From Candidatus Termititenax persephonae (GTDB lineage: Bacteria > Margulisbacteria > Termititenacia > Termititenacales > Termititenacaceae), in assembly GCA_003864475.1 (NCBI GenBank), contig BGZO01000004.1:1-54761 (forward strand): a stretch of 54,761 bases of DNA, in the 5' to 3' direction. Both the position numbers and the translations under genes were made by a program. Shown here one piece after another: positions 20,163 through 53,885 of the stretch (position 1 is the stretch's first letter; every line of letters starts with the position of its first letter). The notes below the pieces were generated by a model. The model worked only from the letters and a program-made list of their open reading frames with translations. It ran no database searches and was not told the origin of the DNA.

Positions 20163-21362
20163 TTATATAGTCCTGGCAAGGCGAAAGCCGGTATTTCTGT
20201 TGTCAAAGGAGACATTAACAGCCGACGACTCAAAGAAGAAGTCGACTCTATCGGTGTAGGGGTTGTAGTCATTATAAGCACCGCCTCGGATTACATAATA
20301 ATCATTAAAATTCGTATACGTAGTAGTTGAACACCACTCCGCAACATTGCCCAAGACATCGTAGAGGCCGTAGGCATTGGGTTTTTTCTGCCCCACCATG
20401 TGCGGCCGTCCGGAAGAATTGTTGTAATACCAGCCGTATTTGTCCATCTCTGTCTCACTCCAATCATCGCCCCAGATGTACTTCGTCGTCGTCCCGCCAC
20501 GGCAGGCGTATTCCCATTCCGCCTCCGTCGGCAGGCGGTAGCACCCAGCATAACTCGACCCTGCCGCCACATCGTTGTATGCCATAGTTTTTACTCTTAC
20601 ATCATTGTAGTTGTTGCGAAGATTCACTAATCTATTCTGGTCGACATAGTATTGGCGTATTCTGTCCTTGACTGCGGCCGCTACGTCATCGGATTCCAGC
20701 GTCAGGTGCAGGCAGTATTGTACGGCATCGTCCCATGAAGCACGTACCGGGATATGTATGTCCAAATGTGAATCTGAATGTAAATCTGAGTTGTTGGTTG
20801 GGGCATAACCCATCACCCCCACGAACTCATCATACGTTGTTTCGCATTTGGCGATATAGAAACTCCTTCCTCCAGTCTCCAGTCTCACGAACTTACCCAT
20901 GTCCATGACCACCGCCAGCGGTGTAAAACTCTGGAGCAAATCCCACACTGCCTTGGTCGATGGGTATTTATCATCCATTGTATCCGCCGTTATCGTGCTT
21001 ACCCTGTTCGCCGTGCGCTCAATGTCGCCGCATTCTTGCAGATATGTCCACACTGCCTTGCACGTCGGGTATTTCTCGTTGCTGTCCTTGTTGGCCGCCC
21101 AGTTGTCCGACGACGTTACCTTATTTGCCGTAATCTCTTTCCCCGCCGCGTTCTGGACTATTCTCTTCTCCGCCTCTTTCAGCGAGTCTTGGACCACCTT
21201 GGCAGACGGGTACTGCGTATTTGTGTTGCCGTCCGACAGCACCCCCGTCTCCACCTTGTTCGCCACTTTCTCCATGAGGTTGAGCGCCGCTGTCATCTTC
21301 TCCGCGCTTAGCTGTTGCCCGCTCCCGATACCATCGTATGTGTCATTGTAATTGTTGGGCAT
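20163..21362 (-). CDS. Fibre-family protein A1: shared N-module with three YP(S/T)xKAV repeats plus an FGE-sulfatase/SUMF1-type (C-lectin fold) domain
   Basis: [36 protein letters not shown]...[17 protein letters not shown] and KYPSTKAVW form the N-module and repeats. The C-terminal half carries [39 protein letters not shown] and GFRLARTI. There is no signal peptide. Confidence 0.8.
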
Positions 21363-21421
21363 AAGCTGGTTCCTCCACCTTTTTAGTTATTGCGCATAAT
21401 GCACAGTCCCCGCTACCGCTT

Positions 21422-22633
21422 TTAAACAGTCCTGACAATGCGAAACCCAATGTTAGCGGCGCGATGATTGAAGGGGTGGGTATAGGAAAGGTCAAAGGCA
21501 GGATAAATCCCCATAGACCCGCCCCGTATAATACTATTTCGATAATCTTCGTTATTACCACACCACTCCCAAACATTGCCCAAAACATCGTAGAGGCCGT
21601 AGGCATTTGACAGCATCGTCCCAACTTCCCGTACACCATTGGTGTAATACCCCGCATAATTGTTTCTTTCGTATTTATTATCGGCATCCTTTTGATTAAA
21701 ATCGTCGCCCCAGAAGTACTTCGTTGTCGTCCCACCCCGACCAGCATACTCCCACTCGCTTTCGAACGGCAGGCGATAACAACCAAGGCGGCCAGACAAT
21801 GCCGCCAGCTCATTGTATGCCAACGTCTTCGTCCTGCTTGTATAATTATTGTCCCAATCATATGCAGTCTTGCACGCATCCGGGTCGACATAGTACTGGT
21901 GTATCCTGTCCTTGACTCCGTCCGTTACGTCATCGGACTCCAGCGTCAGATGCAGGCAGTATTGTACGGCTTCGTACCATGTAACATTTGCTACCGGAAA
22001 ACGCTTCCTCTCAGGATATACTGGGTTATATGTATATGCTGGGTTATAGCCCATTACCGCCTCGAACTCACCCTGTGTCGTCTCGTATTTGGCGACATGG
22101 AGTTTCCTTGGTCCAATTGCCAGCTCCACGAACTTATCCTCATTCAAGGCCATCTCCAGCGGCGTAAAACTCTGGAGAAAGTCCCACACCGCTTTCGCCG
22201 ATGGGTATTTCCAGCATTCTCTACTATCATTTATATCTGCCGTTATCGTATTTACCTTGTTCGCCGTGCGCTCAATCCTGTTGTTGTCGATGTATTTTTG
22301 TAGTACAGATTCCACCAGATTGCAGGTAGGATATTTCACGTCGCTGTTCTTATAATCGTTCCAGTACCAGACGACCAAGCCGCTCGCCAACTTGTTCTCC
22401 GTAAGTTCCTTGCCCATAGCGTCTTGGGTTATCCTCCTCTCCGCCTCTTTCAGCGAGTCCCAGACCACCTTGGCGGACGGGTACTGCGTATTTGTACTGC
22501 TCCCTGACAGCACCCCCGTCTCCACCTTGTTCGCCACCTTCTCCATCAGGTTCAGCGCTTTCGTCATCTTCTCCGCGCTAAGCTGTTGCCTGCTCCCAAT
22601 ACCGTCATACGTGTCGTTGTAACTGTTTGGCAT
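21422..22633 (-). CDS. Fibre-family protein A2: shared N-module plus an FGE-sulfatase/SUMF1-type domain
   Basis: The first 50 or so aa are about 90% identical to A1. It carries [39 protein letters not shown] and GFRIVRTV. The C-terminal 45 aa are unrelated in sequence to A1. Confidence 0.8.
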   Translation of the reverse strand: MPNSYNDTYDGIGSRQQLSAEKMTKALNLMEKVANKVETGVLSGSSTNTQYPSAKVVWDSLKEAERRITQDAMGKELTENKLASGLVVWYWNDYKNSDVKYPTCNLVESVLQKYIDNNRIERTANKVNTITADINDSRECWKYPSAKAVWDFLQSFTPLEMALNEDKFVELAIGPRKLHVAKYETTQGEFEAVMGYNPAYTYNPVYPERKRFPVANVTWYEAVQYCLHLTLESDDVTDGVKDRIHQYYVDPDACKTAYDWDNNYTSRTKTLAYNELAALSGRLGCYRLPFESEWEYAGRGGTTTKYFWGDDFNQKDADNKYERNNYAGYYTNGVREVGTMLSNAYGLYDVLGNVWEWCGNNEDYRNSIIRGGSMGIYPAFDLSYTHPFNHRAANIGFRIVRTV

Positions 22634-22652
22634 GGTTTTATCCTTTTTTTAG

Positions 22653-23165
22653 TTATTTGCGCGCCGTGAAAAGATTGTGCATCCTGAACCTTCGCCAGAT
22701 GGCATTTATTACCCCTTCTACCGTCGGATATTTGTCGTCCGTGGAAAACATGGAGATATCGATACGGTTGGAATCGTGGCTGTTGATGTAGTAGAAGAAA
22801 CGACCGTCGTAATCACTCCTGTTTGTGGTAAGTTCCATGCCACCACCACTGACGGCGGCATTCCATGCGGCCTCTAGGGCGCCGCAACTCGGGTATTTCA
22901 CGTCGCTGTTCTTGTTGTCGTTGGCTCCCCATGTCGTGGATGTTACTTTGTTGTCCGTGATTTCCAAGCCTGCCCCGCTCAAGGCCGCGATGGCCGCATG
23001 CGCAGCCTTCGCCGATGGGTATTGCGCCGCCGTGCTGTTCGCCGTTACCGCGTCAGTCTTGTTTGCCACGCGCTCCAGCAAGTTCAGCGCCGCGGTCATC
23101 TTCCCGGCTTCCGCCTTCACGCCTTTGGTTATCCCCGCGTAGCCGCTTGTGTATGGTGATGCCAT
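22653..23165 (-). CDS. Fibre-family protein A3 (short member, N-module plus small C-terminal domain)
   Basis: [36 protein letters not shown]...QYPSAKAA, VKYPSCGALEAAW and DKYPTVEGVINAIW mark it as a family member. It is the first gene of the A3-A2-A1 operon. Confidence 0.7.
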   Translation of the reverse strand: MASPYTSGYAGITKGVKAEAGKMTAALNLLERVANKTDAVTANSTAAQYPSAKAAHAAIAALSGAGLEITDNKVTSTTWGANDNKNSDVKYPSCGALEAAWNAAVSGGGMELTTNRSDYDGRFFYYINSHDSNRIDISMFSTDDKYPTVEGVINAIWRRFRMHNLFTARK

Positions 23166-23198
23166 AACCGCCCCCCATGTTAATTTGACTGCATGTTA

Positions 23199-23209
23199 AG
23201 TATAGCACA
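23199..23209 (-). promoter_or_regulatory. Extended -10 element (TGTGCTATACT) for the A3-A2-A1 operon
   Basis: It lies 34 nt upstream of the A3 ATG. The pattern TGTG(C/A)TA(T/A)ACT is conserved at the same distance in the fibre loci at 41501 and 53416, with variants at 31764 and 26399. Confidence 0.5.
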
Positions 23210-23319
23210 TCTTATCATAAAACACAAGAAAAATATTTAATAGTATTTTGTAAATGACAGAGGTTTTTTTATAGTTAAACTATCTATGATAAATAACTAG
23301 TAGAAAGGATTTATAGTAG

Positions 23320-23742
23320 ATGGACATACAAATTGAACAAAGGTTGAAGACCTTGATTAGTAAAAAGCTACAATTGTTGCGTAAAAGAGACAATTGCACT
23401 ATGGAAAAAACCGCTGATTTTCTGGACTTAGATTATTCTCTGTATCATGGTTTGTTGCACGGCACCAGATTGCCGCACTTAGCCACGCTCATGAAAATCA
23501 ATCAAGCCTACGGATTAAATATGGACTGGTGGTTTAGAGATTTTGCTGAAACCTACTCTGCCGCCGCGCCATTGCTTAAAGTAAATGTGGCCAAAAAAGC
23601 CGCCGAAAAGGAATTATTAGGGAACTTCAACAAATTGGATGCCCGCTCCCAAAAAGCCCTGCAAAGAATCCTCAAAACTATGCTCAAGAAACGCCGCGAC
23701 CGCCTTCCGCTCAATAATGTGTATTTTCTTCAATGCGCTTGA
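23320..23742 (+). CDS. XRE-type HTH regulator R1 (fibre-locus-associated paralog family)
   Basis: 140 aa. The HTH region reads TMEKTADFLDLDYSLYHGLLHGTRLPHLATLMKINQAYGLNMDWWFRD, and the C-terminal motif is FNKLDARSQKALQRILK. It is divergent from A3 and paralogous to R2, R3 and R4. Confidence 0.8.
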   Translation: MDIQIEQRLKTLISKKLQLLRKRDNCTMEKTADFLDLDYSLYHGLLHGTRLPHLATLMKINQAYGLNMDWWFRDFAETYSAAAPLLKVNVAKKAAEKELLGNFNKLDARSQKALQRILKTMLKKRRDRLPLNNVYFLQCA

Positions 23743-23764
23743 ATGTTTTAAATATACTCAAAAA

Positions 23765-24217
23765 TTAATTGTTTTTCATGAATAAATTTAGTTCTTCTTT
23801 TAAAACAGCCCATATTTCCTCCATGTTGACCACCAAATCTTCTATTTCTGTCCATTTTAATTTAAAACTATAGGCGTGCCTGACAAAATGGCGGAAATTC
23901 AAATATTCACTTATTTTTTCTTTAAAGTCTTCTCTAAACACGGCTGTTCTAAGGTTTGTTTGTTCAAAGGCTCTGTCCAATAGTTTTTTATGCCATTTAT
24001 CGCCAATAGGAATTTCTGCATCTATCTGTTTTACAATCAACAACAATATATTTTCTACACCGTTATAAAAAGAATGCAGACATAATGCGGCGGCAGATAA
24101 TTCTACAAAATCCGGCACTTTTATTTTACACAGAGCCAGCAATGGTTCAGCATCACTAAGCAATTGATCTAGTTGCGTTATTTCAAACTCTATCTTTCTC
24201 TTAACACCGCTATCCAA
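23765..24217 (-). CDS. hepT: HEPN-domain toxin (HepT-like, type VII TA)
   Basis: 150 aa with the Rx4HxY motif RHFVRHAY. It overlaps the upstream nucleotidyltransferase gene by 8 nt. Confidence 0.7.
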   Translation of the reverse strand: MDSGVKRKIEFEITQLDQLLSDAEPLLALCKIKVPDFVELSAAALCLHSFYNGVENILLLIVKQIDAEIPIGDKWHKKLLDRAFEQTNLRTAVFREDFKEKISEYLNFRHFVRHAYSFKLKWTEIEDLVVNMEEIWAVLKEELNLFMKNN

Positions 24218-24515
24218 TTTTCACAACCTCGCCCAAAGAATTTAGCAGGGCAAAGAAATCTTTATTTTCATCAAAATCCACCAAATCAACCTTTTTAGTT
24301 AGACGGTCATCCAGCTTGGCATAAACTTTAAAAAATTTTTTCTCTGGCAGACCAGAGATGCCGATATCTATATCCGAATGTTTGTGCAGGTGTCCTGTTA
24401 CCAGTGAACCAAACAAATACACAGCCCCGCACCCCTCGCTTTTTAATAAAGCCGAGGCCGTGTCTACGTCCTGCCGATAATCTTCTGGAAGTTTAAGTGA
24501 TTCCATACACAACAT
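24210..24515 (-). CDS. mntA: Minimal nucleotidyltransferase antitoxin (MntA-like)
   Basis: 101 aa with the GSxxxG...SDIDIG motif (LFGSLVTGHLHKHSDIDIGISG). Confidence 0.75.
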   Translation of the reverse strand: MLCMESLKLPEDYRQDVDTASALLKSEGCGAVYLFGSLVTGHLHKHSDIDIGISGLPEKKFFKVYAKLDDRLTKKVDLVDFDENKDFFALLNSLGEVVKIG

Positions 24516-24543
24516 AATATTCTATATTAGACTGGATTTCAAT

Positions 24544-24603
24544 TTAATGAAGTCTGAGCGCCGCCGCCTTATATGACGAGCGCACGAAAATCCCGGAAAA
24601 GAC
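24544..24603 (-). pseudogene. Relic copy of the lipA 3' end
   Basis: It reads FSGIFVRSSYKAAALRLH*, against FSGPFVRSSYRAAEVYLSV* at the end of lipA. Positions 24561..24603 match 25294..25336 at 39/43 nt. Confidence 0.75.
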
Positions 24604-24610
24604 ATAATTT

Positions 24611-24880
24611 CTAAGCAAAGCTGACTTTTAGTTTTCTTCCCGTAGCCAGAGCAATTTTGCTCAGAAATTCTAACGTCGGATTATAATTACCGCTTTCCAA
24701 ACGAGAAATATTGGATTGTTTTGTGCCAATTAATTCCGCCAAGCGTTTTTGCGTAAATTTCTTTTCCTTACGCGCCAAAATTATATCTCCAATAATTTTA
24801 TATTCCATCTTATTGTTTTCTAATTCCCGGCGGACTTCTTTATTCTTTAAAATTATTTTTTTCGCTTTGTGCCAATTCAT
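24611..24880 (-). CDS. XRE-family HTH antitoxin (HigA-like)
   Basis: 89 aa with FTQKRLAELIGTKQSNISRLESGNYNPTLEFLSKIA. It overlaps the upstream toxin gene by 4 nt. Confidence 0.8.
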   Translation of the reverse strand: MNWHKAKKIILKNKEVRRELENNKMEYKIIGDIILARKEKKFTQKRLAELIGTKQSNISRLESGNYNPTLEFLSKIALATGRKLKVSFA

Positions 24881-25233
24881 AGGTGCTTCCTCCTTTTGTA
24901 ATCATTTATTCTGGCGACAGCTACTGCTAATTCTTTTTGCGGTGTTTTATTAGCCTTCTTAACAAAGCCATGTAATAAAACACAATGGTTAGCATAAAAC
25001 ATAAAGTAAAAAATCCTAAAAGCATCCGAACCAAATTTTATTCTTAATTCCCATAAAGATTTTTCTCCCTCTATCTTCCTAACATGCGGAAAATGTAAGG
25101 CGTTGCCAAACTTTTCCAATAATTCAATTTCCCGATATATTTTAGCCTGCTGTTTCGGCGCTAAAGACAAAATAAAACCAAGCACGGGACTATTGCCGCT
25201 GTTTTTCTCGTACAACTCAATCACATATTCCAT
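24877..25233 (-). CDS. Gp49-like / HigB-RelE superfamily toxin
   Basis: 118 aa. The pattern LWELRIKFGSDAFRIFYFMFYANHCVLLHGFVKKANKTPQKEL matches phage Gp49/DUF891-type toxins. The order is toxin first, as in higBA. Confidence 0.7.
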   Translation of the reverse strand: MEYVIELYEKNSGNSPVLGFILSLAPKQQAKIYREIELLEKFGNALHFPHVRKIEGEKSLWELRIKFGSDAFRIFYFMFYANHCVLLHGFVKKANKTPQKELAVAVARINDYKRRKHL

Positions 25234-26342: not shown

Positions 26343-26398
26343 GATGCAAGTATCTCCGCATCCCCGACGATAGTTGAGTCGGACAAGGTATTAATACT

Positions 26399-26573: not shown

Positions 26574-26585
26574 CCCCCCCCCCCC
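26574..26585. repeat. Homopolymeric C12 tract in the leader of the B1-B4 operon
   Basis: Twelve consecutive C residues, counted directly, lie 137 nt upstream of the B1 start codon. Confidence 0.95.
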
Positions 26586-26722: not shown

Positions 26723-27214
26723 ATGACCATAGCGACAAATCAATTAATCACGGCGAGCGACATGACGGCCGCCCTGAACACCAAGGAGCAGGTGGTCAAC
26801 AGGGTCGACGCGGTTGGTTCCTCATCCACGGACGACCAGTACCCGTCCTCCAAGGCGGCCAGTGCCGTAATCAGCTCCATACGCAATGTCTCGCTGAAAG
26901 ACAAAGCCTTGGACAATGCCGTTATACACCTGAACTCCGCCGATGCGGCGAGCATATCCGGGGCAAAGAATTTCAAGACCTCGCCGACGATAGCGAACAC
27001 CGCCACCGAGGCGGGGAATTACAATAACAAGCTGGCCTTCGAGGCACAGTTGTACGCCATTAACAGCCGGGTCGAAAAGACAGTCAGCAAGGTCAGCAAC
27101 TCCAACTGGGCATCGTACAGCAGCAGCGACGACCATTATCCCAGCTGCGCGGCTGTCTATAAGGCCATAGAGGACTTGAAAAGTACACTGCGCACGGCGG
27201 GGATGATTGATTAG
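26723..27214 (+). CDS. Fibre-family protein B1 (short member)
   Basis: ITASDMTAALNTKEQVVNRVD...DQYPSSKAASAVI and DDHYPSCAAVYKAIEDL mark it as a family member. A G6 Shine-Dalgarno tract precedes it. Confidence 0.7.
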   Translation: MTIATNQLITASDMTAALNTKEQVVNRVDAVGSSSTDDQYPSSKAASAVISSIRNVSLKDKALDNAVIHLNSADAASISGAKNFKTSPTIANTATEAGNYNNKLAFEAQLYAINSRVEKTVSKVSNSNWASYSSSDDHYPSCAAVYKAIEDLKSTLRTAGMID

Positions 27215-27257: not shown

Positions 27258-28091
27258 ATGGCAGGTAATTACAGCAGGACATACGACGGGATAGCGAAGG
27301 GCAGCTCCCTCAGCGCGGCAAAGACGTGTGCGGCGCTAAACCTCCTAGAGCAGACGGCATACAGGGATACGACGGTCGGCAGCAGCGCAGACAGGTATCC
27401 GACCGTCAAGGCGATACAGGATGCCGGGCTGGAGGGCGAAATCAATGCCCGAGCCGCCGACAGCGCCGTCCTGCACAGGACAGACAATAAGACGGAGACG
27501 ATATCCGTGGCGAAGACCTTTACCGCCATGCCGTCCGTACCGATAAAGGCTTCGACACCGGGAAACAACCTGACGACCATAGCCACGGAGGCGCAACTCT
27601 ACAATGTCTACAATGGCACGGAGAAGACGGGTAATAAAAAAAGCACCATCACCGCCAGCAGCACCAACACGGAATACCCCACGTGCAGCGCCGTGTCCAA
27701 CGCGCTGAATACCGTGATAGGATTGATTAAGAACGAGATTACTTTTTACCCGAGCGATTTATATACTGCCAGCTCGACAAAACTTCCCGTTAATAGGACC
27801 ACCCGGACGATTACTTGGAACATCGGGACGATTAGAAGTAAGGACGTAAAAAAAACAACGATTCTCGACGGTGGCTATGCCATGCTTGGTCACATCACGT
27901 GTTGCGCACCTCAGGAGAACATGGTATTTACCGTCTATACCACCAGCAATGGCAACGCACACTCCGGTCAAAGTGCCACGCTGACCATCGATATTTACGG
28001 TAGGGTCATGCTCTCCAATGTTTTATACTGTACCGCGCATCCCGGCATCGCGACTATTTATTACAACACATCAATCAGCTGGACATATTAG
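27258..28091 (+). CDS. Fibre-family protein B2 (N-module plus unknown beta-rich C-terminal domain)
   Basis: MAGNYSRTYDGIAKGSSLSAAKTCAALNLLEQTA...DRYPTVKAIQDA and TEYPTCSAVSNAL mark it as a family member. I did not recognise the C-terminal 110 or so aa. Confidence 0.7.
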   Translation: MAGNYSRTYDGIAKGSSLSAAKTCAALNLLEQTAYRDTTVGSSADRYPTVKAIQDAGLEGEINARAADSAVLHRTDNKTETISVAKTFTAMPSVPIKASTPGNNLTTIATEAQLYNVYNGTEKTGNKKSTITASSTNTEYPTCSAVSNALNTVIGLIKNEITFYPSDLYTASSTKLPVNRTTRTITWNIGTIRSKDVKKTTILDGGYAMLGHITCCAPQENMVFTVYTTSNGNAHSGQSATLTIDIYGRVMLSNVLYCTAHPGIATIYYNTSISWTY

Positions 28092-28100: not shown

Positions 28101-29357
28101 ATGGCACGGAACTCTTACAGCGACAGTTACAACGGGATAACGGCCGGGAACAGGGCCAAGGCCTCCGACATCAACAATGCCCTGGCCAAGATGCAGAATG
28201 TGAGCGACAAGCTGACATCTGCCACGACCAACGCGGACTCATACGCCAGCTTCACTGCCAACTCCGCCAACCACAACATGTACCCCTCGGCCAAGCTGCT
28301 CCACATGGTCAAGGGTCATCTGGACTCGCTGATCCCGTCCAAGGCCGATGACAGTACGGTCGCGCATCTGGCGGGTAGCGAGGACATCTATGGGCAGAAG
28401 CATTTCTCCGTGGCGCCCACGGTGCCGACCAAGGGCAACATCCCGGCAAATGCCAACGGCACGACAATCCCGACGACACAAGCCCAAGTATATGCGGTAA
28501 ACAATGCCAATCTTGAACTCACGAGCAACAGGGTGGACAGCTCCGCCTGGAATAATAACAATACCAGCATGACTAAATACCCCACGTGCAGGGCCGTGCA
28601 GGCCGCCATAGACAGTATTGACGCAAGTGGTTTTCCGACACCTCCGGATCCCCCGCCACCAACACCAGCACCGACACTGGGACCAGCAGCACCATCGACA
28701 AAGTTTATCTTCACCGGAGATGTTCAAATATTTACCGTACCAGAAGACGGCACGTATAGGCTTGAGGTCTGTGGCGCACAGGGAGGGAATGTTAATAATT
28801 ATTTTGGCGGTAAGGGTGGCTACACAAAATGTAATATATCCTTGACCACAGGTAACACACTTTACGTCTATGTCGGTGGCCAAGGCGGCTATAACGGCGG
28901 CGGCGTATCGACTGGTAACGGTAAAGGTACGCTTTATGGTGGTGGCGCTACCGATATACGTCTTGGAGGACAAAATTTAACCAATCGTATAATCGTGGCA
29001 GGCGGTGGTGGCGGTGCGGGGAGCAGCATAGACGGCGGTCCAGGAAATGATGACTCACATATTAATTCATCGCTGGGAATCGGCTCCAGCTATGGCCATG
29101 GTTGTTCCAATAATGTAGGTGCGGGCGGTGGAGGTTTGCATGGCGGACTATCCGGGTCTGACAGCGGTGGTGCGATTGCAAAGGGCTATGGCGGTTCTGG
29201 TGGTTTTGTCGGAAACGCAACCGACGGTTCCGCGGAGACAGGCATACGTGAAGGCGATGGCATAGCCAGAATAACGCTACTGTCGGAGGGTCCACTCTGG
29301 GTGCCGGATGAGGGTCCACTCTGGGAGGATGGGATTCTCGCGGAGGAGACTCTCTAG
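28101..29357 (+). CDS. Fibre-family protein B3: N-module, Pro-rich linker and ALK/LTK-type glycine-rich domain
   Basis: MARNSYSDSYNGITAGN...MYPSAKLL and TKYPTCRAVQAAI form the N-module. The linker reads PTPPDPPPPTPAPT. It is followed by FTVPEDGTYRLEVCGAQGG..GGKGGYTKCNISLTTGNTLYVYVGGQGG...GGGATDIRL...NRIIVAGGGGGAG, the pattern of the Gly_rich (PF12810-like) family. Confidence 0.7.
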   Translation: MARNSYSDSYNGITAGNRAKASDINNALAKMQNVSDKLTSATTNADSYASFTANSANHNMYPSAKLLHMVKGHLDSLIPSKADDSTVAHLAGSEDIYGQKHFSVAPTVPTKGNIPANANGTTIPTTQAQVYAVNNANLELTSNRVDSSAWNNNNTSMTKYPTCRAVQAAIDSIDASGFPTPPDPPPPTPAPTLGPAAPSTKFIFTGDVQIFTVPEDGTYRLEVCGAQGGNVNNYFGGKGGYTKCNISLTTGNTLYVYVGGQGGYNGGGVSTGNGKGTLYGGGATDIRLGGQNLTNRIIVAGGGGGAGSSIDGGPGNDDSHINSSLGIGSSYGHGCSNNVGAGGGGLHGGLSGSDSGGAIAKGYGGSGGFVGNATDGSAETGIREGDGIARITLLSEGPLWVPDEGPLWEDGILAEETL

Positions 29358-29777
29358 GTGTCGGCCTCGCTGACGGAGATACAAATCACTTGGTACAATG
29401 CCGTGAGGAAATGCATCGAACAGACGCACGCCGCCTCTGACGTGCCGACCGACGTGAAGTCCGACATGACCGCCAATGGGTACACAGCCAGCGCCACTGA
29501 GGCAAACTGCATCGCCTATCAGGACACATACGCCCCCGGCAAGAGAATGGTCTACCGCCTGCTGACGGAGGCGGAGTGGATAGAGTGCTATAAGACGGGC
29601 AAGCTGAACTCCCACCCCCAATTCGAATGGGTCGGGGATGCTTATGATTTTTCTCGTCGTGTTTTGCGTATTTATGATAATCCTACTAATCGATCTAATG
29701 ACTCTCCCGGCGATGATTACTTCAACTACTACAGCATCTACAACAGCTACGGTTTTAGGCTTGCCAGGATTGTTTAA
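29358..29777 (+). CDS. Fibre-family protein B4: stand-alone minimal C-type-lectin/FGE-like domain
   Basis: The GTG start immediately follows the B3 TAG and is in the same frame, with GGAGGAG 9 nt upstream. TWYNAVRKC, YRLLTEAEWIEC, FEWVGD and YGFRLARIV parallel the FGE-domain landmarks. The protein is homologous to the C-terminal domain fused in E1. Confidence 0.65.
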   Translation: MSASLTEIQITWYNAVRKCIEQTHAASDVPTDVKSDMTANGYTASATEANCIAYQDTYAPGKRMVYRLLTEAEWIECYKTGKLNSHPQFEWVGDAYDFSRRVLRIYDNPTNRSNDSPGDDYFNYYSIYNSYGFRLARIV

Positions 29778-30987: not shown

Positions 30988-31297
30988 TTTTGTCTGCCGC
31001 CGTTGCCAAGAAAATTTTTCCGAACTGGTCTGTGGCGGCGAGAAAACAGCCTGTCCCCGCTGTGGGGCGGACAATCCCCAGAAATTATTTTCCGGCTTCC
31101 ATACCATCTCTGACGCGACCAGATTGGAGACCGGAGCCGCCGACCTGCCGACCATGGAGCAATGGGAAAAAGCGCGGCAGACCAAGCCCTCGGACAGCGG
31201 ACGGAACCGAAGCGTCCGCCAACCCCGAGATAAAGTGAAACGTTTATCCCTGAAAGACCTCAAGCCGCGCCCGGCAGTGCAGAGAAGAACACGCTGA
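30974..31297 (+). CDS. FmdB-family zinc-ribbon protein
   Basis: I chose the start at MPVFDFVCRRCQENFSELVCGGEKTACPRCGA, which has two CxxC pairs. The upstream extension of the longest ORF overlaps apgM. Confidence 0.7.
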   Translation: MPVFDFVCRRCQENFSELVCGGEKTACPRCGADNPQKLFSGFHTISDATRLETGAADLPTMEQWEKARQTKPSDSGRNRSVRQPRDKVKRLSLKDLKPRPAVQRRTR

Positions 31298-31673
31298 CCA
31301 CCTCGCAACCTTTTTGTTTGCGGAGATAATGCCGCAATATTTTCAACGTGGCTTTCTGCGCCTTGATATCCAGCCGATTAAAGACCCGCGCCAGCTCGGA
31401 AAATTCCCGTCGCCGCACGGCTCTCTCTCTGACCGCTAGTTTTTCCACATCCCGAAACCAAGCCTCCAGCGGTATGCCATAAGTCTCACTGATTTGGAAA
31501 AGTGTAACCATGCGCGGCAAAGTCCGGCCTTTGTAAATGCTGTAAAACGAAGCGTAATCTAGGCCGATTTCATAAGCCATTTCTTCCAGCGAATATCCGT
31601 TCTTTTCTTTGATTTGTTTTAGTTTCCCGCACATCAGAGTTTTTAGTCTTTTTTCTATCTCGCTTTTTTCCAT
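31260..31673 (-). CDS. XRE-type HTH regulator R2 (fibre-locus-associated paralog family)
   Basis: The start is at MEKSEIEKRLKTL, after AGGTGG. The protein carries SLEEMAYEIGLDYASFYSIYKGRTLPRMVTLFQISETYGIPLEAWFRD and FNRLDIKAQKATLKILR. Its 3' end overlaps the convergent zinc-ribbon gene by 38 nt. Confidence 0.8.
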   Translation of the reverse strand: MEKSEIEKRLKTLMCGKLKQIKEKNGYSLEEMAYEIGLDYASFYSIYKGRTLPRMVTLFQISETYGIPLEAWFRDVEKLAVRERAVRRREFSELARVFNRLDIKAQKATLKILRHYLRKQKGCEVVSVFFSALPGAA

Positions 31674-31812: not shown

Positions 31813-32793
31813 ATGGCAAATGATTATGGCGACCAAGCAAAATATAAGGCGGAGCCTTATAACATAGATTCCGAGAAGAGGATTACGGCCTCGGGCATGA
31901 GGACGGCCCTAGGGACGAAAGAGGACGTGGCGAACAAGAAAGATACCCTCGCCAACAGTTCCACAGAGTATCCGTCATCCGCGGCTGTCTACGCGCACAC
32001 GTCCAATAAAAACAACCCGCACGGCGTAACCAAGGCGCAGGTGGGCCTGGGCAGCGCGGACAATACGAGCGACGCGAACAAGCCTATCTCGACGGCGACA
32101 CAAACCGCGCTGAACGGCAAGCAGGCCCTGCTCCCCGTCGGCACGATACTGATGTATGACGGCACGGGCTGGGCGGACAACAGCACGTTGCCCGGCTGGT
32201 ACCAGTGCAACGGTAAGAACGGCACGCCAGATTTGCGGGACAAGTTCATCCGCGGCGGCAGAAGCGGTGAAAACATGGCGCGCGGCGGGACGGGCGGCGC
32301 GGACAGCCGGAGCATAACCCTACAGAAGGTCAACCTGCCGAGCCACAATCATAGTCTGACCGCCCTGACGCTGGGTAACGAGTCGGCGCACACACACTCC
32401 GTCTCGGCCACCACGGACACCAAGACACACAGCCATACATTTAGTGGAAACAATCTCTCCGGGGATACTCCATATTTTCAAATGGATTATTCAAGAACGG
32501 GTACTAATAATACAAATGGAATTATAACCAGCACGACCCAAGTAGGCGGTTCGACTGATAGCGGCGGCGGACATGACACTTGCGCTTCTTTTTCAATAAG
32601 CTTTACCCCTTCTGGCACAATCAACGGCAACGGCAGCCACGCGCATAGCTTTACCGCGACCAGCGGTGCCGGGAGCGGACACACGCACAGCCTGTCCAGC
32701 TCGACAATCAGCAATACCGGCTCCGGCACGGCGTTCACCGTCGACACCGTACCGACTTACTATTCCATGATTTATATCAGGAGATGCGCGTAG
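31813..32793 (+). CDS. Fibre-family protein D1: N-module, phage-fibre GLG..NTSD..KP motif, tail-collar domain and His-x-His repeats
   Basis: I chose the start at MANDYGDQAKYKAEPYNI by comparison with E1 and E2, after a G7 tract. It carries ITASGMRTALGTKEDVANKKDT...EYPSSAAVYAHT, AQVGLGSADNTSDANKPISTATQTALNGK, and GTILMYDGTGW..PGWYQCNGKNGTPDLRDKFIRGG (Phage_Tail_Collar-like). The His-rich part reads SHNHS, AHTHSVS, THSHTFS, SHAHSFT, GHTHSLS. Confidence 0.8.
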   Translation: MANDYGDQAKYKAEPYNIDSEKRITASGMRTALGTKEDVANKKDTLANSSTEYPSSAAVYAHTSNKNNPHGVTKAQVGLGSADNTSDANKPISTATQTALNGKQALLPVGTILMYDGTGWADNSTLPGWYQCNGKNGTPDLRDKFIRGGRSGENMARGGTGGADSRSITLQKVNLPSHNHSLTALTLGNESAHTHSVSATTDTKTHSHTFSGNNLSGDTPYFQMDYSRTGTNNTNGIITSTTQVGGSTDSGGGHDTCASFSISFTPSGTINGNGSHAHSFTATSGAGSGHTHSLSSSTISNTGSGTAFTVDTVPTYYSMIYIRRCA

Positions 32794-40096: not shown

Positions 40097-41000
40097 CTAG
40101 GCAATCCTAGAAAGTCTGAAACTGATAGCGTTACCGGGGTTGACGTACGCGCCGTACATGTAGTGGAGGGTGGGATCTCCGTAAAGATAAGGATGGATAT
40201 CATACCTCCAGTACATAATAACACGATTATCGGAATCATGGGCATCCCCTACCCACTCGAAAAAGGTGCCGCCGTTGGGGGGGGGTACTCAGCTTGTTTG
40301 TGGTACGGCACTCCATCCACTCTGCCGCCGTCAGTAGCCGATAAATTTTGTGCCTGCCCGGTACATACATGTCCTGATAGGAGATGCAGTTTGCCTCAGT
40401 GGCGCTGGCTGTGTACCCATTGGCGGTCATGTCGGCTTTCACGCTATACGGCACGTCCGTAGCGGCATGCGTCTCCTCGATGCACTTCCTCACGGCATCG
40501 TACCAAGTGGTTCTCACCGATGTCTGCGAGGCCGACACCCGGAGTCTTGGCTTCGATGCTTGTACGAAGTCCCACACCGCCTTGGCCGTCGGGTAGTGAG
40601 AGTGAGTGGATGACACGCTGATAGATTGCACCCAAGTAATTGTGTTTTGCTTGTTGTTCAACGCGGTCTGTTCGGCGGACGAAATTGCTCTGCCCGCGTC
40701 GCTCGTGTTGTTCACGCTGCCCAAGCCTATGTCGGACTTCGTAAATATCCGTGTCGAGGGGAGCGCCCCGAGTTGTGCTATGGTTACGCCGTGCGGGTTG
40801 CTTTTATTGGACGTGTGCGCGTAGGCGGCCTTGGCTGACGGGTAATATGTGGAGTTGTCAGTGATGGTGTCCTGCTTGTTCGCCACGTCCTCTTTCGTCC
40901 CTAGGGCTGTCCTCACGCCCGAGGCCGTAATCGCCTTGCCGAAATTTATATTGTAAGGGTTTTCCTCGTATTTTGCTTGGTCGCCGTAATTACTCGCCAT
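40097..41000 (-). pseudogene. Fibre-family protein E1 (N-module, GLG..NTSD motif, C-terminal minimal CLec-like domain) with its frame broken at a C9 tract
   Basis: With 9 C residues the ORF stops at 40236 (254 aa, ...KLSTPPQRRHLFRVGRGCP*). Removing one C gives ...KLSTPPNGGTFFEWVGDAHDSDNRV...NAISFRLSRIA*, which ends at 40097 (300 aa) and is colinear with B4. Confidence 0.8.
40277..40285. repeat. Homopolymeric G9 (C9 on the coding strand) tract inside E1
   Basis: Nine consecutive G residues, counted directly, sit exactly at the E1 frame break. Confidence 0.95.
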
Positions 41001-41018: not shown

Positions 41019-41471
41019 TTAAAGTTCACGCTGAACCAGTTCATACACCGCCTGGGCCGTCGGGTACTCATAGTGAGTGGACGACGCGCTGATAGAAGTT
41101 GCCCAAGTAATTGTGTCTTGCTTGTTGTTCAACGCGTTCTGCGTCAAGGTTGAGACGGGCTTATTTATGTCGCTCGTGTCGTTCACATTGCCCAAGCCTA
41201 CGTCGGATTTCGTGGGTACCCATGTCGAAAGACGCGCACCAATCTGCCCCGCCGTTACGCTGTGCGGGTTGTCCACCCTAGACGTGTGCGCGTAGACGGC
41301 CTTGGCTGACGGATAATATGTGGAGTTGTCAGTGATGGTGTCCTGCTTGTTCGCCACGTCCTCTTTTGTTCCCAAGGCTGTTCTCACGCCCGAGGCCGTA
41401 ACCACCTTATCGGAACTTATATTGTAAGGACTCTCCTTATATTTTATCTGGTCGCCATAATCGTTTGCCAT
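41019..41471 (-). CDS. Fibre-family protein E2 (short member with GLG..NTSD motif)
   Basis: I chose the start at MANDYGDQIKYKESPYNI. It carries VTASGVRTALGTKEDVANKQDTITDNSTYYPSAKAVYAHT and SDVGLGNVNDTSDINKPVSTLTQNALNNK. The DNA of its N-terminal region is about 95% identical to E1. Confidence 0.75.
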   Translation of the reverse strand: MANDYGDQIKYKESPYNISSDKVVTASGVRTALGTKEDVANKQDTITDNSTYYPSAKAVYAHTSRVDNPHSVTAGQIGARLSTWVPTKSDVGLGNVNDTSDINKPVSTLTQNALNNKQDTITWATSISASSTHYEYPTAQAVYELVQREL

Positions 41472-41595: not shown

Positions 41596-41940
41596 ATGTC
41601 CAATCTCCAGCAATTAAAAAGCCATCTCGGCAAATGTTTAAAAGATTTACGCTTAAAGAAAAATCTAACTATCGAGGTCTTAACTGGCTTAATCGACATG
41701 GACTTTTCCAATTATGTCCACCTAGAAACCGCCCGCCGCAGTAACCCTACTTTGGAAACTTTATATAAGTTGGCAGAATTTTACGGTGTTTCTATCCATT
41801 ATTTTTTTCAAGACTACAAAAGCACCGCCGCGCTAGCGCCCAAAACTAATGTTCTCGAAAAAAAGTTATTAAAAACTTTCCGCCGTCTCCACCCCGACAG
41901 CCAGCGGCTTTGTGTCCAATTTCTTGCCAGCGTTAAGTAG
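41596..41940 (+). CDS. XRE-type HTH regulator R3 (most divergent fibre-locus regulator paralog)
   Basis: 114 aa with TIEVLTGLIDMDFSNYVHLETARRSNPTLETLYKLAEFYGVSIHYFFQD and FRRLHPDSQRLCVQFL. It is divergent from E2. Confidence 0.7.
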   Translation: MSNLQQLKSHLGKCLKDLRLKKNLTIEVLTGLIDMDFSNYVHLETARRSNPTLETLYKLAEFYGVSIHYFFQDYKSTAALAPKTNVLEKKLLKTFRRLHPDSQRLCVQFLASVK

Positions 41941-51954: not shown

Positions 51955-51971
51955 TTTAAAAACACCAAGGG

Positions 51972-53384
51972 TCAGTTCACTCTCATTATATAAATTACCG
52001 TATAGTAACTCGGCACGGTGGCGACAGTGAACACTGTGCCAGAACCTGTAGCGGCTGTCGAGCCACCCACTGTCCCGCCGGAAACCGTCCCTGTTACGGA
52101 ATGGGTGTGTGCGCCCGCGGAAGAGGCCTTGCTGGTGGATGTGAAATCGTGTATATGCGCACCATCGGAAGCGGCTGTGCCTGAAGTCGAATGCTCATGT
52201 GCGCCATCATGGTCTATTGTAATACCTGTCGTACTATAATAAGTATTTGTTTTATATGAAGCATCTTTAAGGAGTCCGCCGCTTTCATACACAGTTTCAG
52301 GATTTCCGCCCGTACTATCCATATGCCCCAATTCGTGCCTGTGTCCACTCCCACTGTTAGGCTCGATAATTCCGTGGCTATGACCCCCCGCTAATATTGT
52401 AGAACCAGTTGTTGAATGTTCATGGTTTCCTGCGAGAGCGGCTCCGCCGGATAGGTCATGCTCATGCGCACCGTCAGAGGCCGCGACACCATCCGTAAAG
52501 GACAGACCTGATATGGACAGTCCGGTCGCTCCGTGATTGTGCGCGGGTAAATTTGCTGTCTGTAAGGTTATGCTCCGGCTGTCCGCGCCGCCAGTCCCGC
52601 CGCGCGCCATGTTTTCACCGCTTCTGCCGCCCATGATGAACTTGTCCCGCAAATCTGGCGTGCCGTTCTTGCCGTTGCACTGGTACCAGCCTTTCAACGT
52701 GCTGTCATCCGTCCAGCCCGTGCCGTCATAAATCAGTATCGTGCCGATAGGGAGCGCGGACTGAAGGGTGGCGACGGCTTGCGTCCCGGGTTGCCCGCCC
52801 GCCGTGGCCGGGGCTGTCAGTAAGTTTGCTGGGTCTGTCGCGGTTATCTTGTCCTGCTTGGCGGACAATTTCGTGTTGACATCGTTCTTCGTGTAATATT
52901 GCGTGTCGTGGGTGTGGCTATCGCTCAGTACCTGCCACGTCTTGTCGCCGCGCCAGTATTTGGCGTTCGTCCCCATCGCGATGGTGGCTTCCTTGCCGCT
53001 CAGCGCGGTGTAAATGCCGCCGGACGTTACGGGGTTCCCGCTGTCCGCCGTGGGCGTGCTGTCGAAGGTCAATGTGTCCTGTTTCCTGTCGAGGTTCGCC
53101 CCCACCAGCGTGGACGACGGGTAGTAGTCATTGAGAGAATCGCCGTTCAAGGTGTTGTCGGCGTGGTCGCTGGTCTTGCTGGTGTCGTATATCTGTTTGT
53201 TTTCCACCTTCTCCTTGGTGTGCAGGGCGTTCCGCATCCCTTCCGCCGAGATTTTCTTCTCGGAGTATATGTCGTATGCTACGTTCTCTCCATTTTCGTT
53301 TACATATATCCCATTGATGAAGTCCGTGTCTTCCGTGCTGTTCGTGCCATCTACGTATTTCGTGTATTTATTTGCGTTCGCCAT
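51972..53384 (-). CDS. Fibre-family protein F1: extended N-module, tail-collar domain and long His-x-His / G-[AG]-H-x-H repeat region
   Basis: ISAEGMRNALHTKEKVENKQ...DYYPSSTLVGANL forms the N-module. GTILIYDGTGWTDDSTLKGWYQCNGKNGTPDLRDKFIMGG is the tail-collar block. The His-rich part reads AHNHGA, GAHEHDLS, GNHEHSTT, GGHSHGI, GHRHELGH, GAHEHSTS, GAHIHDFT, GAHTHSVT. The C-terminus FTVATVPSYYTVIYIMRVN parallels D1. Confidence 0.8.
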   Translation of the reverse strand: MANANKYTKYVDGTNSTEDTDFINGIYVNENGENVAYDIYSEKKISAEGMRNALHTKEKVENKQIYDTSKTSDHADNTLNGDSLNDYYPSSTLVGANLDRKQDTLTFDSTPTADSGNPVTSGGIYTALSGKEATIAMGTNAKYWRGDKTWQVLSDSHTHDTQYYTKNDVNTKLSAKQDKITATDPANLLTAPATAGGQPGTQAVATLQSALPIGTILIYDGTGWTDDSTLKGWYQCNGKNGTPDLRDKFIMGGRSGENMARGGTGGADSRSITLQTANLPAHNHGATGLSISGLSFTDGVAASDGAHEHDLSGGAALAGNHEHSTTGSTILAGGHSHGIIEPNSGSGHRHELGHMDSTGGNPETVYESGGLLKDASYKTNTYYSTTGITIDHDGAHEHSTSGTAASDGAHIHDFTSTSKASSAGAHTHSVTGTVSGGTVGGSTAATGSGTVFTVATVPSYYTVIYIMRVN

Positions 53385-53415
53385 AATAATCCCCCCATAT
53401 ATTTTACTGATTCAT

Positions 53416-53426
53416 AGTATATCACA
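53416..53426 (-). promoter_or_regulatory. Extended -10 element (TGTGATATACT) for F1
   Basis: It lies 32 nt upstream of the F1 ATG and belongs to the conserved pattern seen in the other fibre loci. Confidence 0.5.
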
Positions 53427-53519
53427 TTTTTATAGTAAGTCAACATATATTGGATAACAATAAAAGCGTGGGACATAATCCATTAAACTAAATTATCGGT
53501 TGGAAAGGATTGATTTTTT

Positions 53520-53885
53520 ATGAAAGATATTGAGAAAAAATTAAAGTCTCTAATCTCTGCAAAACTACAACAAATCAGGCACGGTAGCGGCGAAACTCTG
53601 GAAAAAATGGCTGAGACACTTTCCTTGGATTATAGTGTTTTTTATCATCTCTATAAGGGTTCCTATTTGCCGCGTTTAACCACTTTGTGGCAAATATCCA
53701 AAATCTATAATATCCCCATCGAGGATTGGTTTAAGGAATTGAACTTTGAGAAAAAAGTCAAAGCAGACAAGAACAGTTTAGAGTTTTCCCTGCTGCATAA
53801 TTTTCGCAAACTCGATGTCAAAACTAAATCCGTTTTTGCAAAAATCTTGCAAAGGTATACCGCCAAAGAACGCCAGCATCGTTAG
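53520..53885 (+). CDS. XRE-type HTH regulator R4 (fibre-locus-associated paralog family)
   Basis: 121 aa with TLEKMAETLSLDYSVFYHLYKGSYLPRLTTLWQISKIYNIPIEDWFKE and FRKLDVKTKSVFAKILQ. It is divergent from F1. Confidence 0.8.
   Translation: MKDIEKKLKSLISAKLQQIRHGSGETLEKMAETLSLDYSVFYHLYKGSYLPRLTTLWQISKIYNIPIEDWFKELNFEKKVKADKNSLEFSLLHNFRKLDVKTKSVFAKILQRYTAKERQHR

Follow-up and report, generated by a model that had tools for sequence, protein, structure and literature searches.

A dispersed family of fibre-type genes

The window we analysed, a 54,761-nucleotide stretch of the Candidatus Termititenax persephonae genome, carries a family of tail-fibre-like genes in six chromosomal cassettes, all of which sit between core genes. 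Ten of the family's ORFs are complete, an eleventh is frameshifted and a twelfth is represented by a 3' fragment; there are one to four fibre genes per cassette, and the proteins are 150–470 aa long. An earlier note on this DNA had placed eleven ORFs at six sites wedged among core genes; ORF calls and translations confirmed the coordinates, and the core-gene context held for all six cassettes. Searches with Pfam and PHROGs found no phage structural genes in the window, as the note had stated. GC3 was 0.58–0.76 in fibre genes versus 0.65±0.04 in core genes, and AT-rich toxin-antitoxin modules adjoin cassette A.

The family is held together by its N-terminal part. All-versus-all BLASTP linked A1–A3, B1–B3, D1, E1, E2 and F1 to one another, and a homologous N-module opens nine family ORFs. 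Comparison of the A/B and D/E subfamily N-modules with hhalign gave a probability of 97% (E 1.1e-10, 55 columns), so the similarity is not low complexity, an objection that the earlier note had itself raised. The shared opening of ~60 aa that it described is thus significantly homologous by BLASTP and hhalign, but only the first ~25 aa, a lineage-specific cap, are specific to the family. The remainder is the first copy of a widespread repeat (profile positions ~27–65), which recurs in longer proteins among the best 150 of 2831 matches. Nor does the module open every ORF that had been listed, as none was detected in B4 or in the fragment at 2–46.

The fibre proteins follow a common plan of a ~25-aa N-cap, one to three shaft units of 35–45 aa (…ANK…YPSxKAV) and then a tip or none. 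Extra YP(S/T)xxAV units number two in A1–A3, one in B1–B3, E1 and E2, and none in D1 and F1, which agrees with the one or two further units of ~35 aa reported for most members. The motif GLGxxxNTSD..KP(I/V)S was found in D1, E1 and E2, again the number of members first reported. Neither a transmembrane segment nor a hydrophobic N-terminus was found in the family proteins (maximum KD19 1.24), in keeping with the earlier reading that signal peptides and transmembrane helices are absent, and the proteins did not match S74 in a Pfam search.

Cap-bearing proteins with a named source all belong to Candidatus Termititenax or a termite-gut Margulisbacteria MAG, and the cap stands at residue 1 in 34 of the best 150 of 2831 profile matches. 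The family has most likely expanded within this termite-gut Margulisbacteria lineage, Candidatus Termititenax and its relatives, and is specific to it. IMG/VR contigs lack the cap, and catalogued phage genomes hardly ever contain the YPSxKAV repeat, so the phage link of the A/B subfamily rests on its homology to D, E and F and on its tips.

Tips of several kinds

Two members carry a TvpA-type C-lectin tip of the FGE-sulfatase fold, as had been proposed. A1 (20163..21362, minus strand) combines the N-cap and three YPS units with this domain (PF03781, E 1.2e-28), and A2 (21422..22633, minus strand) is its paralogue (54% identity; PF03781, E 7e-26). The best PDB match of the A1 lectin domain is Treponema denticola TvpA (2Y3C, E 6.6e-20), outscoring FGE enzymes by ten orders of magnitude, and the alignment ends exactly at the would-be start of the TvpA variable region. 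At the equivalent C-terminal position A1, which ends in GFRLAR, has a hypervariable patch framed by conserved WEWC and GFRLAR(T), in which codons for N, Y, D, T and S are plentiful. When A1, A2 and two homologues from T. persephonae are compared, identity falls from 60–89% in the N-terminal part to 55–62% in the lectin core and 13–27% in the patch, and paralogue patches are unequal in length through indels. Positions 2..46 (plus strand) translate to …GFRLARTI*, the last residues of another C-lectin-type member whose gene is truncated by the edge of the window; a 49-nt stretch there, downstream flank included, is 92% identical to the A1 3' end.

A reduced form of this domain occurs in B4 and E1. 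B4 (29358..29777, plus strand; identified by tblastn, BLASTP and hhalign) consists of the reduced tip alone and has a GTG start directly behind the TAG stop of B3, in frame with it. Frameshifted E1 (40097..41000, minus strand) has the N-module, the GLG motif and one further YP(S/T) unit ahead of its tip. B4 is 70% identical to E1 residues 155–242 (BLASTP), and hhalign shows the mini-domain to be a homologue of the lectin domain in A1 and A2 (probability 97.9%, E 5e-13), which bears out the minimal C-lectin-like domain suggested for both.

The tips of D1 and F1 are HxH-rich and of Felix-O1 type. D1 (31813..32793, plus strand) has a tail-fibre tip rich in HxH behind its N-module and GLG..NTSD motif (PHROG 8469 'tail fiber', E 2.7e-17; PDB 6OV6, E 2.7e-5), and F1 (51972..53384, minus strand) is a D1 paralogue with a long N-region. 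Over most of its length, D1 is homologous to the Felixounavirus short tail fibre: residues 18–295 align with wV8 gp083 (pairwise E 1e-12), an alignment that covers the NPHGVTKAQVGLG motif, PVGTI, LPxHxH and recurring HxH motifs. The first ~17 residues of D1, which belong to the cap, have no phage counterpart. In the phage, the gp083 gene follows baseplate genes directly; D1 instead sits between apgM and dus, and F1 between fabH and fabD, each with a regulator. The earlier assignment of a tail-collar domain plus HxH repeats therefore stands for the HxH tip but not for the collar, as PF07484 matched neither protein (E limit 0.1), nor any of 19 aligned family members including both (E limit 0.01).

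Another tip is a glycine-rich domain in B3 (28101..29357, plus strand; ALK_LTK_GRD, PF12810, E 1.3e-14), as the earlier note had predicted; it also matches PHROGs 5811 and 7388, and a B3 homologue is present at locus L008 of another genome. The note had further grouped four C-termini as carrying no recognised domain. This description fits B2 (27258..28091, plus strand; BLASTP), whose ~110-aa C-terminal domain behind the N-module matched nothing in Pfam or PHROGs, but the other three are short and tip-less. They are A3 (22653..23165, minus strand), the first gene of cassette A, with the N-cap and three YPS units in 170 aa and homologues in Ca. Termititenax persephonae at 47–69% identity; B1 (26723..27214, plus strand; 163 aa), in which the first cap residues are missing; and E2 (41019..41471, minus strand; 150 aa), the first gene of cassette E.

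Regulators and control regions

Four cassettes pair their fibre genes with a divergently transcribed regulator of ~110–140 aa, and the paralogy of these XRE regulators confirms what had been noted. R_A (23320..23742, plus strand; HTH_3) is a paralogue of R_D (31260..31673, minus strand; start revised to ATG at 31673), R_E (41596..41940, plus strand; HTH_3, E 6e-10) and R_F (53520..53885, plus strand), just past which fabD begins. R_F alone had no Pfam match and was recognised as XRE-type through its paralogy with R_A and R_D. Neither a regulator nor a regulator remnant was found in cassette B by tblastn. In cassette A, the divergent control region (23166..23319) contains an extended -10 (TGTGCTATACT), a G-run Shine-Dalgarno sequence and an ATGGCA start; an extended -10, a G-run Shine-Dalgarno and an ATGGC start are common to the aligned control regions (n=4).

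The same pairing recurs outside the window. An HTH regulator is paired with a fibre gene at other core junctions in L008, L012, L013 and L014. The regulators of the first three are clear homologues of those in the window (R_E is 44% identical to the one in L013), and that of L014 is only weakly so. In L009, the family member at the contig end has an HTH gene facing it that is only distantly related. Phage structural genes were not found within reach of these five loci, and neither the window nor the ~10-kb flanks of the six other loci showed a docking platform.

Only two G/C tracts of at least 9 nt occur in the window, and both fall in cassettes, which lends some support to the contingency repertoire that the earlier note had considered. 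One is a C9 tract (G9 on the plus strand, 40277–40285), where a +1 frameshift breaks E1 and C8 would restore the frame; sequencing error or simple decay may account for the shift. The other, a C12 tract (26574..26585, plus strand), lies in the gap of 600 nt between lipA and B1, 138 nt ahead of the B1 start, and is a candidate slipped-strand switch.

Proposed recognition fibres and alternative readings

Our preferred reading, which we put forward tentatively, is that these genes encode domesticated phage receptor-binding (tail-fibre-type) proteins with common-cap docking and modular tips, switched locus by locus. The unit would be a small autonomous cassette in which an XRE-type repressor gene diverges from one to four fibre genes driven by the conserved control region. 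With no export signal, the fibres are probably assembled in the cytoplasm, like phage and tailocin fibres. They would dock as trimers via the cap onto one partner structure encoded elsewhere, with the tips giving alternative binding specificities. Local repressors, perhaps together with G/C homopolymer slippage, would turn single cassettes on and off, and the set of fibres shown by the cell or its particles, and with it the recognition of other cells, could then change. Such a switchable set would matter to a lineage that is reportedly an attached ectosymbiont living on Treponema spirochetes.

The earlier proposal of alternative fibres, a constant N-terminus with interchangeable receptor-binding tips, is supported, since every recognised tip (TvpA-type, Felixounavirus-type and glycine-rich) belongs to a kind found in the binding proteins of phages or DGRs. 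Bordetella phage Mtd, a DGR protein of C-type-lectin fold, is the tip of a phage fibre. Two AlphaFold models had mean pLDDT of 42 and 33 and so lend the fibre or trimer state no structural support. Tailocin, eCIS and RcGTA fibres likewise lack a signal and combine a conserved end for docking with tips that vary, but particle genes were not seen here. It counts against our reading that tailocin and eCIS fibre genes normally form part of the structural cluster instead of being dispersed with regulators of their own, and multiple cassettes with individual repressors are, to our knowledge, no feature of these systems. RcGTA tail-fibre and head-spike genes are located outside the main cluster, which shows that a domesticated particle need not have all its fibre genes in one place.

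The closest analogue is the mosaic adhesive trimer (MAT) fibre superfamily of Bdellovibrio bacteriovorus, whose members have signal peptides, a ~130-aa β-rich N-domain and long β-helical shafts (about 600–1300 aa) and often carry an S74 chaperone-protease (Caulton et al. 2024, PMC10769870). The earlier note had not recognised a described system; the literature we searched holds none, but the MAT repertoire is a functional analogue (PMC10769870). In both cases a bacterium that attaches to other bacteria has a chromosomal repertoire of many paralogues resembling phage tail fibres. Their N-terminal domain is invariant and presumably binds a self structure, and their C-terminal tips fold independently, are swappable and include lectin-like ones. 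Unlike MATs, the Termititenax proteins are short, have a ~60-aa N-module and no signal peptide or S74 match, and are encoded in cassettes with private XRE regulators.

This likeness raises the alternative, which we consider unlikely, that the proteins are direct cell-surface adhesins with no tail-like particle: exported non-classically and anchored by the cap to an envelope component, they would themselves attach to spirochetes. An attached lifestyle and hypervariable lectin tips would suit such adhesins. Many paralogues with an invariant N-terminal domain and swappable tips also follow MAT logic (PMC10769870), but every MAT has a signal peptide, whereas signal peptide, lipobox and transmembrane segment are all absent here, and the proteins are short beside MATs. 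The resemblance of A1 to TvpA, a DGR variable protein, the end of their alignment where the variable region begins, and the framing and codon content of the patch would also fit C-lectin members (A1, A2, B4, E1 and the 2–46 fragment) that are present or past targets of a DGR encoded elsewhere, whose retroelement rewrites the C-terminal patch. We regard this as quite improbable, as no template-repeat-like copy of any of the five patches was found in the window, and neither there nor in the regions flanking the other loci was a reverse transcriptase found. The lectin core has diverged as well, and the indels between paralogue patches could not be produced by homing from one template.

Phage-type fibre genes beside phage-type XRE repressors, the frameshifted E1, the tip-only B4 and the toxin-antitoxin modules could instead point to functionless remnants of decayed prophages, kept by chance. 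This is very unlikely given that the same two gene kinds, and no others, occur at five window sites and the same pairing at four sites in other MAGs, with mostly intact ORFs, conserved cap, promoter and Shine-Dalgarno, near-native GC3 and no other phage genes found nearby. It is highly improbable, too, that the cassettes are small mobile or selfish elements or anti-phage modules (for instance, decoy fibres that disrupt the assembly of phages, or modules that change the target of a helper phage). Occupied core junctions differ between genomes and the regulators have a higher AT content than the fibre genes, but integrase and transposase genes are absent and PADLOC returned generic HTH matches only. 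A 9-nt direct repeat, CACCAAGGG, flanks F1 and R_F exactly between fabH and fabD; flanking repeats were not found at the other cassettes, and by our estimate this 9-mer is expected by chance at roughly 9%.

A shared N-terminus and exchangeable tips

The fibre-like genes of the window are arranged in cassettes A (A1 to A3), B (B1 to B4), D (D1), E (E1 and E2) and F (F1), with a 3′ fragment at 2-46. An earlier note, made from the sequence alone, had proposed a dispersed tail-fibre-like family, and all the ORFs it assigned to that family are present where it placed them. In an all-against-all BLASTP comparison, A1-A3, B1-B3, D1, E1, E2 and F1 were joined through their N-terminal 60-170 residues, and they form two subfamilies, A/B and D/E/F. 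The note had named one way in which this N-terminal similarity could dissolve, as non-significant low complexity. This objection fails, since the profiles of the two subfamilies match over the first ~65 residues with a probability of 97% (E 1.1e-10, 55 aligned columns, profile-profile comparison). Additional YP(S/T)xxAV units were counted by motif: two in A1-A3, one in B1-B3, E1 and E2, and zero in D1 and F1. The motif GLGxxxNTSDxxKP(I/V)S is present in D1, E1 and E2. The proteins also lack signal peptides and transmembrane helices, as claimed, with a maximum 19-residue Kyte-Doolittle mean of 1.24 and no hydrophobic N-terminus.

The N-module, the shared start of about 60 residues, comprises a lineage-specific cap and the first copy of a widespread repeat. 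Searched against 1.84 billion representative proteins, its profile gave 2831 matches at E<=1e-3. Among the 150 best of these, the longer proteins matched at profile positions ~27-65 exclusively, several times per protein, and these positions correspond to a repeat of the type …NKVTxIxSxSTDxQYPSAKAVYD, for which Pfam holds no model. Some carriers of the repeat have PHROG tail-fibre matches, and hardly any copies occur in catalogued phage genomes. In 34 of the same 150, the alignment began at the first residue of profile and protein alike, and these matches have in common the cap MANNY(T/N/G)D…(Y/F)xG…I…. Every cap carrier with a source name among the matches listed comes from Candidatus Termititenax persephonae, Ca. 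T. aidoneus or a MAG named "Candidatus Margulisbacteria bacterium". Neither two scans of IMG/VR contigs nor the species-representative genome set yielded the cap; scans of genomes and metagenome contigs with the N-module returned only loci, Arenibacter-like and others, in which the repeat part (query residues ~20-66) is shared and the cap is missing. We note that this repeat part (…GTKEDVANK…YPS…) occurs in proteins of marine Flavobacteriia (Arenibacter; loci L001-L006) at 40-57% identity. A resemblance between the YPSxKAV unit and the "…AATPKAV…" repeats of P2 gpH was considered and rejected (hhalign of the N-module profile against gpH, probability 0.1%).

The fibre proteins of the window are 47-69% identical to T. 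persephonae counterparts, which places the window in a relative of that species within the same lineage. Family members are named "hypothetical protein", "phage tail fiber protein" or "sulfatase-modifying factor protein" in databases, and none of the papers covered by a literature search describes the family.

Judged by sequence and not by genomic context, D1 and F1 belong to a phage tail-fibre homology group. Both matched PHROG 8469, "tail fiber" (D1 E 2.7e-17, F1 E 1.7e-12), and a tblastn search with D1 hit 452 phage records, the best-ranked spanning D1 residues 18-212 at about 33% identity. Residues 18-295 of D1 align with gp083, a short tail fibre of 391 aa in Felixounavirus wV8 (BLASTP, pairwise E 1e-12), and the alignment takes in NPHGVTKAQVGLG, PVGTI, LPxHxH and the HxH repeats; in the phage, the gp083 gene comes after baseplate genes. 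The Collar domain PF07484, expected in both proteins, gave no match at E<=0.1, nor did it appear at E<=0.01 among 19 aligned family members that included D1 and F1, for which Pfam returned only weak Gp10_C and BppL_N matches. The motif LPxGW..C.G..GTPDLR is nonetheless recognisable and aligns to PDB 6OV6 (D1 E 2.7e-5). AlphaFold2 monomer models had a mean pLDDT of 42.5 for D1 (19-sequence alignment) and 33.4 for A1 (4 sequences), too low for the models to be of use.

The sequences of A1 and A2 place them in the FGE-sulfatase/C-lectin fold family, closest to DGR variable proteins. PF03781, predicted for both, was recovered at 100.9 bits in A1 (E 1e-28) and 91.8 bits in A2 (E 7e-26), with a cut-off of 23.3. 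Among solved structures, A1 is closest to TvpA, a DGR variable protein of Treponema denticola (2Y3C, E 6.6e-20), and formylglycine-generating enzymes reached about E 1e-9 in the same search. The alignment of A1 with TvpA stops exactly at …GNVAEWC, the expected start of the TvpA-type variable region. In TvpA-type proteins, the variable region that binds the ligand is found where the lectin domain ends, on its C-terminal side. In a comparison of A1, A2 and two homologues from T. persephonae, the first 150 residues are 60-89% identical and the lectin core 55-62%, and identity falls to 13-27%, with indels, in the ~45 residues that precede the conserved GFR(L/I/V)(A/V)RT end. Within the lectin domain, this hypervariable patch likewise lies at the C-terminal end. 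DGR variable proteins are marked by a C-lectin with a variable C-terminus, and this is the combination found here, with TvpA as the top PDB match and a patch at 13-27% against 55-89% elsewhere.

B4 and the C-terminus of E1 are a shortened form of the A1/A2 lectin domain (hhalign probability 97.9%, E 4.7e-13), a tie to the PF03781 fold that runs solely through this comparison with A1 and A2. These mini-lectins follow the same divergence pattern as the A1/A2 lectins. The start of B4 coincides with a conserved junction, (V/I)SxSxT..(I/T)TWYxAV, which also opens the lectin domain in E1 and in a relative of 217 aa encoded by another MAG. B4 and the 2-46 fragment had been counted as carriers of the shared N-module, and this did not bear out: B4 is a tip alone, and of the fragment the lectin C-terminus alone is visible. 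The last 49 nt of the fragment, with the downstream flank, are 92% identical to those of A1. B3 and B4 (28101-29777) form one frame with a single stop, the B4 GTG (29358) standing directly behind the B3 TAG (29355-29357), and GGAGGAG lies 9 nt before the GTG. Such an arrangement might reflect a two-tip gene split by a nonsense mutation, a candidate for readthrough, or recombination that left a tip module behind.

The remaining tips are of other kinds. B3 carries the ALK/LTK-type glycine-rich domain PF12810, as anticipated (55.2 bits against a cut-off of 24.5, E 1e-14), and its homologue in locus L008, from another termite-gut Margulisbacteria MAG, has the same domain. Unrecognised domains had been proposed for A3, B1, B2 and E2. 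This stands for B2, in which a C-terminal region of about 110 aa has no database match, and falls for A3, B1 and E2, which are short proteins that have no tip and each open their cassette.

Regulators, homopolymers and chromosomal setting

The four XRE regulators that the note had reported (R_A, R_D, R_E and R_F, beside cassettes A, D, E and F) proved to be paralogues of one another (BLASTP E 1e-8 to 4e-30). HTH_3 was matched in R_E (E 6e-10), R_D (2.7e-5) and R_A (1.1e-4), and R_F is linked as a regulator only by paralogy and PADLOC HTH models. The start of R_D was revised to 31673. All four have the core …LDY..Y..L..G…P.L.TL..I…YGI…WF(R/K)D in common, and each is divergent from the first fibre gene of its cassette over 124-154 nt. 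On the fibre side, the four control regions share an extended -10 (TGTGCTATACT-like), a G5-6 Shine-Dalgarno sequence and an ATGGC(A/G) start. The G-run Shine-Dalgarno sequence is also found at B1, B2 and B3 and is almost absent from core genes. An S8 subtilase gene (35259-36842) has one like those of the fibre genes, and its product carries a C-terminal FlgD_ig or weak Por_Secre_tail-like domain. Cassette B has no regulator or regulator remnant. An ORF upstream of B1 (26150-26428, minus strand) was considered as a fifth regulator and rejected; it has no Pfam or PHROG match and no regulator similarity, and is probably not a gene.

Comparable cassettes occur in other termite-gut Margulisbacteria MAGs. 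A regulator accompanies 107-aa, 343-aa glycine-rich and 125-aa members between nrdR and glmS (L008), a 308-aa HxH member between an acetyltransferase gene and recJ (L012), a 344-aa HxH member between fic and rho (L013), and a 334-aa member between rlmD and a radical-SAM gene (L014). A regulator faces a family member at a contig end in L009, and in L007 two family members adjoin pemK and the rpmG-secE-nusG operon. Clear homology to the window regulators was seen for those of L008, L012 and L013 (best pairs 44% identity, E 7e-33 and 8e-27), and only a weak relationship for those of L014 and L009 (best E 1.5e-4 and 5.8e-5). Four of the five MAG control regions have the G-run Shine-Dalgarno sequence (GGGAGG in L013), and four of the five have the ATGGC start (ATGACA in L009). 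Since the pairing of regulator and fibre recurs at different core junctions across the MAGs, the conserved unit is a regulator with its fibre gene or genes, placed at different core junctions in each genome.

The window is ordinary chromosome. It runs from fic, rpsP, a flagellar cluster, clpB, an aminotransferase gene and lrp to cassette A; through hepT/mnt, higBA and lipA to cassette B, then apgM and cassette D; through dus, mazG, an S8 peptidase and a histidine kinase gene to cassette E; and through the trp operon, a glycosyltransferase gene, plsX and fabH to cassette F and fabD. GC3 is 0.58-0.76 in the fibre genes against 0.65±0.04 in core genes, lower in the regulators (0.43-0.54) and much lower in the neighbouring toxin-antitoxin genes (0.31-0.41). 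As their GC3 resembles that of core genes, the fibre genes are long-resident and not recent imports.

Only three G/C homopolymers of at least 7 nt occur in the window, all inside cassettes: a C12 tract 138 nt upstream of B1, a G7 tract in the B2 Shine-Dalgarno sequence, and a C9 tract breaking E1 (G9 on the plus strand, 40277-40285), with a chance expectation in 54.7 kb of about 0.4 tracts of at least 9 nt and about 0.01 of at least 12 nt by our simple composition estimate. The E1 reading frame exits the lectin domain at C9, the remainder lying in the +1 frame up to a stop at 40097-40099, and a run of eight C in its place gives an intact E1. Contingency loci have tracts placed to switch an ORF or a promoter, and such placement is seen in the C9 tract, where C8 restores the frame, and in the C12 tract. 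The tracts fit slipped-strand switching; a fixed frameshift or an assembly error is equally compatible.

Possible roles of the fibre family

Together, these results show a lineage-specific, chromosomally resident and modular family that derives from phage receptor-binding proteins, has private regulators, and carries tips that have been exchanged and whose divergence is fastest at the binding site. We favour reading it as a repertoire of fibres, the most likely of the accounts considered, held at somewhat less than even confidence. The proteins would be assembled in the cytoplasm like phage, tailocin or CIS fibres, to which the lack of any export signal points, and the cap would dock onto one partner, as its strict conservation suggests. 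Four elements of this account are our inference: a docking partner, the oligomeric state, the XRE proteins acting as repressors, and the biological target. Direct adhesins that do without a signal are a rather unlikely alternative. That the lectins are DGR targets is improbable. The likeness to TvpA and the position of the hypervariable patch are those of a DGR variable protein, and a retroelement origin of the patch diversity is not supported locally, because the patches are unequal in length, no template-like copy for the five patches was found in the window beyond paralogue flanks (blastn, word size 7), and no reverse transcriptase or Avd was present among the window ORFs scanned or in related loci.

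Prophage debris is a very improbable account. The claim that the 54.7 kb holds no phage structural gene was upheld (Pfam, and PHROGs for ORFs with no Pfam match), and the flanks of L007-L009 and L012-L014 likewise had none, so that the fibre genes do not lie within a tail or baseplate module. Least probable of all are mobile or anti-phage cassettes. No convincing flanking repeats were seen as a mobility signature except a 9-mer around F1 and R_F, and PADLOC, searched for anti-phage defence systems, gave only generic HTH matches on the regulators and none on the fibres.

By published description, the closest functional analogue of the Termititenax family is the MAT fibre superfamily of Bdellovibrio, whose 21 paralogues each carry an unvarying N-terminal domain behind a signal peptide and display exchangeable tips on the surface of the predator (PMC10769870). 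By the definition given there, a MAT protein has a signal peptide and, behind it, a conserved β-rich N-domain of ~130 aa. The Termititenax family departs from this definition on both counts, with no hydrophobic N-terminus and an N-module of about 60 aa, and it adds per-cassette regulators.

The molecular basis of bacterium-to-bacterium attachment in uncultured episymbionts is poorly understood. The Termititenax lineage is reported by Utami et al. 2019 (ISME J) to live attached to ectosymbiotic Treponema of termite-gut protists. We tentatively suggest, as a doubtful but specific extension of the fibre-repertoire reading, that the cassettes are its long-sought attachment apparatus, made of phage-derived, individually switchable recognition fibres that bind Treponema partners. 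A paralogous repressor network and homopolymer slippage would decide which tip is displayed, and the lectin tips would evolve hypervariably at the binding site. If true, the MAT principle would have been invented a second time and independently, with no signal peptides and a private switch for each cassette. Such a finding would extend the idea, known from the MAT family, of bacteria domesticating phage fibre architecture into large adhesin repertoires, adding signal-peptide-less cytoplasmic assembly, per-locus repressors and possibly simple-sequence switching. The family offers a concrete and testable attachment candidate, compact and modular with distinct docking and binding ends, kept with its own regulator per cassette in a lineage living attached to spirochetes. 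Its tips amount to naturally exchangeable binding modules carried by a minimal scaffold of ~100 aa, and may interest protein engineers.

Other repeats and neighbouring genes

Several further features of the window were observed beside the cassettes. The 9-nt direct repeat CACCAAGGG, at 51963-51971 and 53971-53979, flanks F1 and R_F exactly, its copies falling after the fabH stop and ahead of the fabD ribosome-binding site. The pair may be a target-site duplication, with a chance expectation of about 0.09 by our own estimate. Between cassette A and lipA, the HepT/MNT and HigB(Gp49)/HigA pairs adjoin each other (23765-25233). A 43-nt direct repeat (24561-24603 and 25294-25336, 91% identical) duplicates the lipA 3′ end beyond the AT-rich higB/higA, and looks like a toxin-antitoxin insertion with target duplication. 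In the 600-nt gap between lipA and B1 there are two perfect 42-nt direct repeats (26240-26281 and 26301-26342), each holding an AT-rich hairpin, ATTTTTTGGG…CCCAAAAAAT (fold z-score -2.3); Rfam gave no match at gathering thresholds, these repeats included.

A family member adjoins a DUF4172-Fic gene both in the window (2-1348) and in L013 (5298-8027, MAG GCA_031267055.1), which may be coincidence or a conserved neighbourhood. The FliG ORF (10640-11146) encodes only 168 aa, comprising FliG_N and the start of FliG_M and lacking FliG_C, and fliH comes immediately after it. A truncation of the flagellar switch or torque protein in this attached symbiont is one possibility, a split gene call another.
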